38,161 nt of DNA from a candidate division NPL-UPA2 bacterium Unc8 (GTDB taxonomy: Bacteria; NPL-UPA2). A model generated the notes under the pieces. It saw nothing but the letters and a program-made list of their open reading frames with translations. It made no database searches and was not told the DNA's origin. Location of the stretch: positions 1-38,161 of the forward strand of contig NDHY01000007.1 in the NCBI GenBank assembly GCA_003574845.1, read 5' to 3'. Position numbers and translations under genes: made by a program. The stretch's first letter is position 1. Each line of letters opens with the position of its first letter. This document shows, piece after piece, positions 18,428-23,894 of the stretch.

Positions 18428-19772
<1,345 letters not shown>

Positions 19773-19775
19773 TAC

Positions 19776-21008
19776 TTAAGGAGGAGTGACAGTAAGTATT
19801 TTTCTTGCTTGCTCAGGATAGCAAGCAATAAATTTTAGCTCGTCGTTTGTAAGCGGCTTCTGGGTGTGAACATTTGCATAGCGAACAAGCTCCAGAATCT
19901 TTACTGCTTCAGCGTCACTGTGGAACTCTACCTCTAATTTGTCGTAAATGTTGCGGAATCCCTTGATGCCGCTGTACTCCCCAGCAGTAATTTTACGCCC
20001 TGTATCCACAAGCTCGGGCTCCCCCCTGCCCAACTCCCTGAAATCGTAGAGCTCATAATTCCTGCTATCCTTAAGAGCGCCGTCAGCGTGAATGCCAGAT
20101 TCATGGGCAAAGGCATTCTCTCCCACCCCCACCTGGTTTATGGGAATAGGAATACCAAAGGCATAGGATGCATATTTGCTAATCTTCCAGGATTTTGAAA
20201 TGTCAATCCTTTCATCAAGAAAATACTTGTTTTCCATTCCGCTTGACCTTTTTACTGCTAAAATAACAGAAAGCAAATCAGCATTTCCTGCCCGCTCACC
20301 CATACCATTGATTGAGGTATTAATATAGGCATCTACCCCTGCATCAATTGCTCCCTTTGCTCCGGCGACAGAGCAGGCAACAGCCATGCCAAGGTCATTA
20401 TGGCAGTGAAGTTCAATAGGAATCTTAACTGCCTTAACAAGGTTTCCTATTCTCTGATAGATAGTAAATGGATCATTGTATCCAAGAGTATCACAGTATC
20501 TAAAGCGGCTTGCCCCCTCATCACGGGCAGCTTTTGCAAACTTGATGAGGTATTTGTCATTAGTGCGCGAGGCATCCTCCGCATTAACTCCAACCGTTTC
20601 TGCTCCTAATTTTTTTGCTTCTCTCACAGCATTAACCATCATTTTTAATATATCACTACGATTCTTACGACCCTCGAACTTGCCCTTAATCATCTGGTCT
20701 GAGGTTGATATTGAAATGTTGACATGCTTGATATTGGTTAAACGAAAAGATTTTGTAATCTCCCTGATGATTACCGGGCACCAACCCCCTAAAATCATTG
20801 GGCTGATAACTCCCATCTCAGCAAGCTCCAGGTTTGCATTTACATAGTTTATCTCATGATTTGTGTATGGAAACCCGAGCTCGCTCTGATAAACGCCCAT
20901 TTTATTTAAGAAAATATTAATTATTGTCTTCTCGAGTTTTGCCAATCCCAACCTTGATGTTTGTACTCCATCCCGGTTCGTCACATCAATAATGTATATC
21001 TTATTCAT
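19776..21008 (-). CDS. DRE-TIM metallolyase: homocitrate-synthase-like, possibly Re-citrate synthase
   Basis: DVTNRDGVQ, HCHNDLGMA, GERAGN, FAHESGIH; no LeuA regulatory domain; ATG 21008 with upstream AAGGA SD. Confidence 0.8.
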   Translation of the reverse strand: MNKIYIIDVTNRDGVQTSRLGLAKLEKTIINIFLNKMGVYQSELGFPYTNHEINYVNANLELAEMGVISPMILGGWCPVIIREITKSFRLTNIKHVNISISTSDQMIKGKFEGRKNRSDILKMMVNAVREAKKLGAETVGVNAEDASRTNDKYLIKFAKAARDEGASRFRYCDTLGYNDPFTIYQRIGNLVKAVKIPIELHCHNDLGMAVACSVAGAKGAIDAGVDAYINTSINGMGERAGNADLLSVILAVKRSSGMENKYFLDERIDISKSWKISKYASYAFGIPIPINQVGVGENAFAHESGIHADGALKDSRNYELYDFRELGRGEPELVDTGRKITAGEYSGIKGFRNIYDKLEVEFHSDAEAVKILELVRYANVHTQKPLTNDELKFIACYPEQARKILTVTPP

Positions 21009-21036
21009 TGAGAGTCCTTTCCTCAATAGATTTGCA

Positions 21037-21071
21037 TAAAAGTAGCGGGGCACACCTCTCGCCCCGCTACT
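21037..21071 (-). terminator. Intrinsic terminator
   Basis: 11-bp perfect stem AGTAGCGGGGC/GCCCCGCTACT followed by a U tract on the - strand. Confidence 0.75.
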
Positions 21072-21196
21072 AAGTTAACCCCGCCCTCTATGCTAAATGT
21101 ATTAATTTCCTTATGCTTAGAGAGCGGGATAACTTCCATTAAAGCTTCCTAAACATAGGAATTTGAGAAATTCCTATATACATAGGATGACTCTAA
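21072..21196 (-). ncRNA. Putative structured RNA: two long hairpins
   Basis: Stems 21138-21196 and 21072-21135, whose mismatches become G-U pairs only on the - strand. Confidence 0.45.
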
Positions 21197-21206
21197 AGCC
21201 ATCTCC

Positions 21207-21329
21207 TTATTTTTTCTTCTTCCTCCTGCCGCGAGCCATCTTCGCCCGTGAGATATCTCCAGCCTTGTCAACATAGTAAAGATACCCCTCTTCCCTCTTT
21301 ACACCAACTTTGGTTACTTTCTCTGCCAT
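21207..21329 (-). CDS. Small basic 40-aa protein MAEKVTKVGVKREEGYLYYVDKAGDISRAKMARGRRKKKK
   Basis: ATG with GGAGGTGA SD 7 nt upstream; TAA stop; co-oriented with the operon; below the ORF-track cutoff. Confidence 0.85.
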   Translation of the reverse strand: MAEKVTKVGVKREEGYLYYVDKAGDISRAKMARGRRKKKK

Positions 21330-21372
21330 CTCTAAATCACCTCCCTATATTAGGTTTAAAACCAGTAATGGC

Positions 21373-22902
21373 TTATTTGTCAAGCATTTTTTCTTTCAAC
21401 AGCACTATTTTATTTATAGCTTTAAGATAAGCCCTGGCGCTAGCCTCTATAATATCAGTGCTTGACCCCCTCCCCGTTACAGTATTGCTTCCCTCCCTTA
21501 TCCTCACTGTAACCTCACCGAGAGCATCCTTTCCACTGGTAACTGCTCGCAATGAATAATCAAGGAGTTCTCCTTTTACCCCTGTAATACGATCAATCGT
21601 TCGGTAGGCAGCATCAACGGGCCCATCTCCACAGGCGGCATCCTCAAAAACCTCTTCTTTCTTCTCCAACTTAACGGTTGCAGTGGGAACAGTCTGGCTA
21701 CCGCTGGTAACATGGATGTATTTCAGATGGAATACCTCGGGAATAGTTGATATCTCGCCTTGAACTATCGTCTCCAGGTCCTCGTCAAAAACCTCTTTTT
21801 TCTTATCCGCCAACTCCTTAAAGAATACATAGATGCGGTCCAGCTCATTTTTATCCAGTTCATAGCCAAGTTCTCCTAAACGATGCTTTACGGCATGCTT
21901 CCCGGAGCGGCTGGTGAGAATAATTTTACTCTCCTTAAATCCAACTGAGGCGGGAGTCATTATTTCAAATGTCTCTCTCTTTTTAAGTATCCCATCCTGA
22001 TGAATTCCAGAACTGTGAGCGAAGGCATTTTCTCCTACAATTGCCTTATTATGAGCAATGGCCATCCCTGTAAGATGACCCACTAATCGGCTGGTGCGAT
22101 ATATCTCTTTCGTATCTATTTTTGTGGTAAAGTTAAGGAAATCCTTTCTTGCTTTAAGAGTCATCACAATCTCTTCCAGAGAAAGATTTCCTGCTCGTTC
22201 TCCAAGGCCGTTCACGGTGCATTCAACCTGGCGGGCGCCATTCAGGATTGCCGTAAGTGAGTTTGCCATCGCCAGCCCCAGATCATCATGACAGTGAACA
22301 CTTAAAATTACCTTATTGATATTTGCCACATTGTCAATAATCCTTTTTATTAAGTTCCCGAACTCGTCCGGGAGAGCATACCCAACAGTGTCGGGAATGT
22401 TAATGGTCGTAGCGCCGCTATCTATTGTTTTCTCTATCACTTCACAGAGAAAATCAAACCCTGTTCTTGATGCATCCATTGGAGAAAACTCTACATCAAA
22501 AGTCAGGTCTTTAGCTATCTTTACCGCATCTACTGCCATCTTGAGAATTTCCTTTTCCGATTTTTGCATGATGGATTCCCGATGCACCGATGAGGTTCCA
22601 ATGAAGACATGAATGCGCGGCTTCTCTGCTTCTTTGACAGCTTCCCAACATCTTTCAATATCTCCTCTCAATGCCCGTGATAGTCCAGCAATAATTGGTC
22701 CCTTTATGGTCCCGGCAATTTTCCTGACCGCCTCAAAATCCCCTGGCGAAGATATAGGAAATCCTGCCTCAATCACATCTACTCCTAACCTGGCAAGCTG
22801 CCGGGCAATCTCAAGCTTTTCCTTGACATTAAGATGAATCCCCGGAGATTGCTCTCCATCTCGCAAAGTCGTATCAAAAATAATAATCCTGTTTTTTTTC
22901 AT
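21373..22902 (-). CDS. leuA: 2-isopropylmalate synthase
   Basis: [23 protein letters not shown]-terminal regulatory domain (GDGPVDA); ATGA overlap with ilvC. Confidence 0.93.
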
Positions 22903-23894
22903 TCTTTCTTTAGCCATTTCATCAATGTGCGCAGTTTCCTGCCAGTCTCTTCTATTTTATGACCCGCATCTGTTCTGTCCAGAGCATTAAACACGGGTTT
23001 TCCTGCCATATTTTCCGATATCCACTCTCGCGCAAACTCTCCTGACTGAACTTCCTTGAGAATTTTTTTCATTTCTGCCCTTGTCTCATCGTCAATTATC
23101 CTCTTTCCACGGGTGAGGTCGCCATACTTAGCCGTTGTGCTCACCTGGCGTCTCATTCCTGCAATACCATCCTTGTGAATTAAGTCTACAATAAGCTTTA
23201 ACTCATGCAGGCACTCAAAGTAAGCCACCTCAGGCTGGTAGCCAGCCTCAACAAGTGTATCAAATCCTGCTCTTATAAGTTCTGAGACACCACCACAGAG
23301 AACGGCTTGTTCACCAAAAAGGTCGGTCTCTGTTTCTTCAGCAAAAGTTGTCTCCAGCACTCCAGCTCTGGTACCGCCAATTCCCTTTGCATATGCTAAT
23401 CCCACCTCTTTTGCTCCTCCCGTATAGTTCTGATGAATGGCAAGGAGACAGGGAATGCCTCCTCCATCAAGATAGGTTTTCCTGAGCAGGCTTCCTGGCC
23501 CCTTGGGGGCAACCATTAGCACATCTACTTCAAGAGGTGGGAGAATTTGTCCAAAATGAATGTTAAATCCATGTGAAAAGAGAAGGGCATCGTTCTTATT
23601 CAAACCTGATTTAATCTCTGACTCATAGATTCTGGCCTGGAGGTCATCCTGAGTAAGTATCTGAACTATCTCCGCACATTGTGCTGCCTCAGCAGCCGGC
23701 ATTGGCGTAAAGCCATCTTTTTTTGCCCGTTTCCAGTTAGGACTGCCATTTACATCGCTCACCACTACATCCAGTCCGCTATCCCTGAGGTTTTGCGCCT
23801 GGGCATGCCCTTGAATTCCATATCCAATGATAGCAATCCTTTTTCCCTTCAATGCCTTCAAATCGGCATCCTGATCATAATACATCTTTGCCAT
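22899..23894 (-). CDS. ilvC: Ketol-acid reductoisomerase
   Basis: [30 protein letters not shown]. Confidence 0.97.

Follow-up and report, generated by a model that had tools for sequence, protein, structure and literature searches.

An open reading frame (ORF) of 40 amino acids on contig NDHY01000007.1 (assembly GCA_003574845.1) of the candidate division NPL-UPA2 bacterium Unc8 is a real gene, and its product is the half-size, one-unit form in an unnamed family of small basic proteins whose sequence is very strongly conserved. The stretch analysed, called the window below, comprises positions 1 to 38,161 of this contig. The ORF translates exactly as quoted in a first-pass annotation, which a model had made from the letters of the window:

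21207..21329 including the stop codon, minus strand: microprotein ORF of 40 amino acids with ATG start and TAA stop, made up of one GYLYY/GDISRAKMARG unit (residues 1-34) and an RRKKKK tail

The exact product was already present in a public protein collection (P0001), and the gene occurs in a single copy in the host genome (996 kb, 94.7% complete). For IlvC of this genome the nearest named relatives (74-75% identity) bear the label candidate division NPL-UPA2, a tentative placement that agrees with a phylum of only 13 species in the genome set.

Relatives were sought in two ways. A word-indexed protein search, limited to chains of 22-70 amino acids, gave 148 scored candidates, of which 147 were at E ≤ 0.01; in the 120 matches for which E values were listed these ranged from 1e-16 to 4e-9. 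An exhaustive search with clustering at 50% identity yielded 817 clusters at E ≤ 1e-3, including 183 at E ≤ 1e-10. Relatives are encoded in at least 580 species genomes. The first-pass annotation had stated that similar uncharacterised proteins occur in diverse uncultured archaea and bacteria and had proposed a homolog search; the numbers above bear this out and set the ORF far apart from chance. No name for the family was found in Pfam, NCBIfam, PHROGs, PDB or the literature searched.

Alignment of 32 relatives revealed 17 invariant columns. The window protein keeps the family positions G15, Y16, L17, Y18, D21, G24, D25, S27, R28, A29, M31, R33 and G34, and the Lys/Arg-rich segment straight after the unit, RRKKKK in the window, is likewise present in the aligned relatives. 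The copy in a genome of the same genus differs from the ORF by nine nucleotides and by only two amino acids.

Most relatives contain two tandem copies of a 38-residue unit (unit length ~34-38 residues) in a chain of ~75-90 amino acids. Unit counts were taken from a table of matched stretches for the 150 best representatives: 138 had two matched stretches, six had four and one had six, while for P0121 seven stretches were listed and eight were counted by eye. P0122 (625 amino acids, 12 stretches, E 6e-31) was rejected as a relative; it is a different repetitive protein, in which no more than a small part of the motif recurs. Gene loci were compared in the 80 top matches to the window query among the at least 580 species genomes, a sample that is biased because the query chose it. 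A two-unit protein is encoded by 75 of these 80 loci. Clear one-unit genes, whose products end in long lysine-rich tails, are found at three loci (L044, L055 and L077); the contig end truncates L071, and in L017 the search pattern picked up only one unit. The window unit is 70-83% identical to the first unit of the proteins encoded at these loci. When one-unit proteins were compared with the two halves of the common form, all 32 of 32 were closer to unit 1; the difference rests largely on the N-terminal Met-Ala-Glu, and we draw no line of descent from it. The window protein shares its unit, the invariant positions and the basic segment with the unnamed two-unit family of Elusimicrobiota, Omnitrophota and DPANN archaea, annotated as 'hypothetical protein', but has 40 amino acids and one unit where that family has ~80 and two. 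By stopping after one unit the window ORF departs from the common form; we regard it as a variant, and the departure as no ground for excluding it from the family.

Larger relatives show how the unit is used. The six-unit protein P0127 has its units in pairs, with long acidic linkers between the pairs. Fusions to a HinT-like HIT domain (P0257, P0396, P0400 and P0403) contain exactly one unit each, together with a basic tail. Elsewhere the unit is found with OmpA, with SLT_4, with GAF and Prok-RING, with zinc ribbons or with a coiled coil, and as a cytoplasm-side module of membrane proteins; a Pfam scan of 43 long relatives matched only 13 families, none of them in more than two proteins. The tails of relatives extend into long Lys/Ala/Pro-rich, histone H1-like runs. 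Three further fusion candidates were discarded: the C-terminal part of P0159, which by eye resembled a PD-(D/E)xK nuclease, found no support as such in Pfam, NCBIfam or PDB, and P0402 and P0394 look like frameshifted or chimeric gene calls that read into the neighbour gene. The four HIT fusions also share a conserved peptide at the extreme C-terminus (LDDISNLF-like), and at least P0396 is labelled Woesearchaeota. In its position and hydrophobic spacing this peptide may resemble the PCNA-interacting peptides of archaeal replication proteins.

The gene is widespread in the lineages that have it. In the phylum of the window (13 species) the one-unit form was present in 11 of 13 genomes and in all five of the high-quality ones; it was also found in eight rows of the word-indexed search named Margulisiibacteriota or Margulisbacteria. 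The Elusimicrobia-labelled phylum, which holds locus L024, was sampled with genomes at least 85% complete: 146 of 151 (97%) encode a member, nearly always as one two-unit gene, and one of the carrier genomes measures only 0.6 Mb. In the Woesearchaeota-labelled phylum, which holds locus L003, 118 of 151 sampled genomes (at least 70% complete) are carriers. Viral contigs contributed only two loci in 2.9 million.

By domain label the 80 best loci are 42 archaeal and 38 bacterial. Pairwise identity between archaeal and bacterial proteins has a median of 67.6% and a maximum of 88.9%, compared with 70-74% within a domain. A tree of 75 two-unit proteins requires seven changes of the domain label, at least two of them forced by well-supported branches, with the reservation that the alignment is short and some bins are perhaps mislabelled. 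The copy of L057, labelled Binatia, is nearly identical to those of the Woesearchaeota-labelled L009 and L023, so that this locus is perhaps mis-binned or mislabelled; the label of L026, Clostridia, is perhaps doubtful too. The gene is a cellular, near-core gene of several lineages, which has either been exchanged between the domains or been held under extreme constraint.

Comparison with known families gave no name. The Pfam scan of the window protein was run to E ≤ 10, with filters that drop most matches above about 0.1, and returned no family; HU/IHF (PF00216), Sul7d (PF02294) and Cren7 (PF11520) were thus without a match to the window protein, and the last two were not listed among the relatives either. 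NCBIfam, ribosomal protein models included, had no family for the window protein or for the two-unit relative P0123. A PDB sequence search with a one-unit profile gave no match at E ≤ 10. PHROGs had nothing for the window protein, and its best match to a relative (E 4.5e-4) was a family of unknown function; the ESM Atlas returned only unnamed clusters. Full-text literature searches with motif strings and on DPANN, Elusimicrobia and nucleoid proteins retrieved nothing on the family. The first-pass annotation had seen a loose likeness to NUMOD4 (PF07463). What the two share is a loose hairpin pattern (aromatic strand, Gly turn, Ile/Val strand); unlike NUMOD4, the microprotein is a stand-alone cellular gene with two viral loci, has no link to homing endonucleases and has no match to the hidden Markov model. 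NUMOD4 is also missing from the Pfam families listed for the long relatives and for 65 two-unit relatives, and membership in it is not supported.

Structure prediction, another proposal of the first-pass annotation, was more informative for the common form than for the window protein. AlphaFold2 modelled the two-unit P0123 confidently as all-beta, with a mean predicted local distance difference test (pLDDT) of 88.2, a predicted template modelling score (pTM) of 0.71 and six strands, three per unit. For the single unit pLDDT was 64.2 and pTM 0.30, with two main strands (residues 16-20 and 26-30) besides a short one (6-7), which fits the beta-hairpin core and Arg/Lys tail that had been read from the sequence. 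The homodimer prediction for the 40-residue protein scored 0.25 against a mark of 0.42, and we used it neither for nor against dimerisation. Foldseek-type comparison of the predicted two-unit fold gave no clear match to a solved structure; the top Foldseek rows were tandem WW domains at E 0.5-3. Sul7d and Cren7 were missing from the structure rows listed, although the absence of a weak match does not show that the fold is different.

If strands 16-20 and 26-30 pair as a hairpin, L17, F/Y19, A29 and M31 lie on one face, which is likely to be the core between units. The opposite face would then present Y16, Y18 and R28, all invariant, with K30, which is nearly so, ringed by K4, K7, K11, K22 and the basic tail. 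A Tyr/Arg/Lys surface of this kind is typical of sequence-independent nucleic-acid binding, and for this reason we read the family as an architectural nucleic-acid-binding protein.

The reading that we tentatively favour, at somewhat less than an even chance, is that the window protein binds nucleic acid independently of sequence and works as a homodimer. Each unit would form a small antiparallel beta-meander, with strands near residues 3-7, 16-20 and 26-30, followed by the Lys/Arg segment; two tandem units in one ~80-residue chain are predicted by AlphaFold2 to fold into one compact all-beta domain, which the 40-residue protein may rebuild as a homodimer. The mostly even unit numbers, the paired spacing in P0127 and the one-unit HIT fusions suggest a domain built from two units and dimerisation of the short form. 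HIT enzymes are dimers. The exposed Tyr/Arg/Lys face and the basic tail would contact nucleic acid without regard to sequence, and the protein would serve as a housekeeping architectural component, with nucleoid DNA a somewhat more likely ligand than RNA. In the genus of the window its gene would close the ilv-leu operon and be translated from a very strong ribosome-binding site. The positive net charge of the core, the basic tail, the HIT fusions and the archaeal neighbours plausibly point towards nucleic acid, and the identity between domains suggests that the family would need a partner common to bacteria and archaea.

The archaeal neighbours are the following. Among the 80 best loci HerA occurs as a neighbour 16 times and a Mre11-like phosphoesterase 14 times, and OapA, OapC and OapB ('origin-associated') occur 10, 8 and 5 times. 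At DPANN-labelled loci (L003, L005, L006, L007 and other archaeal ones) the two-unit gene adjoins HerA and the Mre11-like gene, or the OapA/OapB/OapC trio. The HIT fusions have a parallel in aprataxin, in which a HIT domain is combined with DNA binding: they too join a HIT nucleotide hydrolase to the unit and a basic tail.

Several established protein classes resemble the proposed one in part. Sul7d (Sso7d/Sac7d) and Cren7 are 7-kDa beta-sheet chromatin proteins of Crenarchaeota, lineage-restricted yet core. The family would be like them in being tiny, Lys-rich and all-beta, with an exposed aromatic and basic sheet face; unlike these archaeal proteins with their SH3-like five-stranded barrel, it is predicted to be built of two three-stranded units, occurs in bacteria and archaea and gives no sequence match to their Pfam families. 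Basic tails are also carried by histone H1, mycobacterial HupB and chlamydial Hc1/Hc2. The Lys/Ala/Pro tails of the relatives are similar, the window having a short RRKKKK version, but here the tail is a variable add-on to a conserved folded unit which those proteins lack. In AbrB/MraZ-type DNA binders a half-domain dimerises in one family and is tandem-duplicated in another. This parallels the relation of the one-unit to the two-unit form in architecture only; no relation in sequence or fold was found.

A number of observations weigh against nucleic-acid binding. No homology to any known nucleic-acid-binding domain was found in Pfam, NCBIfam or the PDB sequence profiles. HU is present in this genome (contig C1) and in 51 of 51 sampled Elusimicrobia-labelled genomes, and a cold-shock domain protein is encoded in the window's genome as well; both coexist with the family, which thus does not replace them, and a complementary distribution offers no argument. 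No neighbour gene is conserved across phyla in the 80 best loci, and in archaea the HerA and Oap genes may lie nearby simply through inherited gene order. Predicted strands, not coordinates, were the basis for deducing the binding face, and the single-unit model may owe part of its lower confidence to a shallower alignment (32 versus 65 rows). As for expression, the RNA-library evidence given below consists of contigs only, so that DNA carry-over is possible.

The first alternative differs mainly in the ligand: the protein may be an RNA- or ribosome-associated factor, such as an accessory ribosomal protein, an rRNA/tRNA chaperone or a hibernation-type factor, acting on a target conserved in bacteria and archaea. 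We consider this unlikely, though the strongest of the competing explanations. A tiny, very basic, single-copy protein that is near-universal in whole phyla, is kept in very small genomes and is preceded by an extremely strong ribosome-binding site would suit such a role, and the invariant tyrosines, if exposed as proposed, might stack on unpaired bases. Because the family coexists with HU, it need not be a chromatin protein. A scattered spread over few phyla of two domains, with near-equal cross-domain identity, is unusual for ribosomal components, however. When 10 neighbour clusters of the best-80 set were scanned against Pfam, no ribosomal-protein family was among those named, the ribosomal models of NCBIfam gave no match, and an RNA chaperone of the cold-shock domain type is already present.

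An adaptor that binds a protein or a small ligand through WW-like or hairpin-repeat-like units, with the basic tail serving attachment to membranes or polyanions, is a more doubtful proposition. Units are indeed joined to unrelated partners and to membrane proteins, on whose cytoplasmic side they lie, and the tandem WW domains at the top of the Foldseek rows point the same way. Neither Pfam nor the fold comparison placed the protein in the WW family (PF00397), whose signature residues are missing from the alignment. That only 13 Pfam families matched among the 43 long relatives, each in two proteins at most, also speaks against an adaptor. A cross-domain identity of 68-89% would moreover require that bacteria and DPANN archaea have a conserved partner protein in common.

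Slightly less probable still is kinship with the blades of beta-propellers of the YWTD, six-bladed type. The protein would then be a free-standing blade relative that forms homo-oligomeric rings or open stacks, and its function need not involve nucleic acid. The unit of ~40 residues has the length of one blade. A two-unit profile searched against PDB matched the YWTD propellers of LRP6 with a whole-sequence E of 9.4e-4 and with the repeat periods in register; these were ten PDB rows, all constructs of one protein, and no single stretch was significant on its own. Among 65 two-unit members weak Pfam matches were obtained to the DUF5050 propeller family (seven) and SSL_N (two), besides WW (three) and choline-binding repeats (three). 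All propeller signals lie below the usual thresholds, and as the pattern of an aromatic strand and an Asp/Gly turn also weakly matches WW and choline-binding repeats, it may be a generic grammar of hairpins. YWTD (PF00058) was not among the Pfam families listed for the window protein, the long relatives or the 65 two-unit relatives, and at E ≤ 1e-6 its model matched none of 41 genomes, control genomes included; at least one of the 41 (G017) carries the small basic family. Unlike YWTD (LDL-receptor class B) blades and engineered oligomeric propeller fragments, the unit has three strands, not four, in the AlphaFold2 model, and P0127, with its paired units and long acidic linkers, looks more like a string of beads than a closed ring. 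Pereira and Lupas (2022, PMC9218822) argue that propellers arise from single blades, which would suit this explanation, and that natural oligomeric propellers are very rare. We give a similarly small chance to the bolder version, in which the 40-residue protein would be a single blade-like unit and the 80-residue protein a two-blade one, living counterparts of the 'ancestral blade peptide' that form homo-oligomers, have been exchanged between bacteria and DPANN archaea and hold nucleic acid with their basic tails. If true, either version would be of interest to the study of protein evolution (PMC9218822).

A nucleic-acid-binding homodimer, the favoured reading, would be of wider consequence. 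The whole family is without a name in Pfam, NCBIfam and PHROGs and without a solved relative in PDB, and proteins with a near-core, cross-domain profile are usually central to the handling of DNA or RNA in the cell. As an architectural protein of the nucleoid or of RNA it would be a major uncharted component in several uncultured phyla and an example of movement between domains. Whether identical halves can rebuild a two-unit domain could be tested naturally on the one-unit form; its 40 residues are within reach of chemical synthesis, so oligomeric state, structure and binding can be tested without a cultured host.

Around the ORF the window contains the following features. The gene names ilvB, ilvN and leuA in the host genome were assigned by eye; for ilvC, IlvC Pfam domains were found.

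21344..21337, minus strand: Shine-Dalgarno sequence GGAGGTGA, 7 nt ahead of the ATG at 21329
21383..21378, minus strand: TTGACA, a -35-like hexamer within the last leuA codons with no convincing -10; a candidate element
21373..22917, minus strand: leuA, 2-isopropylmalate synthase-like, its stop 43 nt ahead of the microprotein start
21072..21187, minus strand: two stable hairpins that separate the ORF from the terminator-like one, their stems kept in the same-genus genome
21071..21041, minus strand: GC-rich hairpin, then TTTT (21037-21040), likely an intrinsic terminator closing the ilv-leu transcript

The Shine-Dalgarno sequence had been called one of the strongest in the window. Pairing of GGAGGTGA with the 3' tail of the genome's own 16S rRNA (contig C12) is predicted at -15.1 kcal/mol, a value reached by only 1.4% of 879 long ORFs, each allowed the best of up to 40 candidate starts. 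It therefore ranks among the strongest in the genome, in keeping with the earlier remark. TTGACA lies exactly where it had been placed. A consensus promoter scan called no minus-strand promoter there or in the 43-nt gap ahead of the ORF, and the -10 element is thus as unclear as it had been described.

The claim of a downstream terminator stood in part. The hairpin and the TTTT are present, and the stem is preserved through compensatory changes in the same-genus genome; the strict terminator rule of the consensus scan called no terminator, this hairpin included. Positions 21000-21210 fold far better than shuffled sequence (z = -7.6) and form three hairpins.

The first-pass annotation had taken the promoter-like hexamer and the terminator as signs of a discrete, well-expressed transcript. 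This was not upheld. The microprotein gene begins only 43 nt after the leuA stop, which makes co-transcription with leuA probable; no hairpin lies in these 43 nt, and all three come after the end of the ORF. It is probably the last gene of an ilvB-ilvN-ilvC-leuA operon. Positions 19800-22900 are covered at 100% identity by contigs of two metatranscriptome libraries, both from one groundwater study, which run unbroken over the junction of leuA and the ORF; giving neither strand nor level, they decide neither for the operon nor for a discrete transcript.

The position of the gene might suggest a lineage-specific accessory factor or regulator of branched-chain amino-acid biosynthesis, which we consider highly improbable: among the 11 genomes of the window's phylum that carry the gene, 5 do have it directly behind a leu or ilv gene of equal orientation (leuA in G000 and G012, leuD in G008 and G010, ilvN in G003), but these genomes are kin, so the adjacency may reflect an inherited gene order, HD/YkuD or CarB/ComEA genes are the neighbours in other members of the phylum, and the neighbours at Elusimicrobia-, Omnitrophota- and archaea-labelled loci are unrelated to the pathway.

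A last suggestion of the first-pass annotation, that the protein is a partner of the adjacent RNA, was not supported. A spacer of 196 nt (21011-21206, minus strand) separates the ORF from the next gene; it is unique in the genome except for two short matches on contig C8 and could be aligned in the one same-genus locus compared (73% identity, stems kept, 23 nt deleted from the middle hairpin's loop), and the neighbours of the protein vary by phylum. Rfam gave nothing at gathering scores in the whole window and only two chance rows of E about 0.75 around the ORF. The spacer might consist of the terminator and the leader of the downstream synthase gene, whose ribosome-binding site sits in a fourth small hairpin. 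Contigs of RNA library X1 break at 21116-21120, within the middle hairpin's loop, and continue there into unrelated loose ends; the break coincides in position with the same-genus deletion. This suggests strain variation at 21116-21120.

The gene directly downstream (19776-21053, minus strand) encodes a second LeuA-like synthase, whose true start is likely at about 21010 (MNKIYII) and not at the GTG at 21053. Because the same-genus LeuA aligns to it at only 33% identity, the product may be a paralogue with citramalate or homocitrate synthase function. For the purA ORF (18428-19759, minus strand) the form listed has an N-terminal extension of 25 residues before the conserved MANVAVIG, and the shorter start is likelier.
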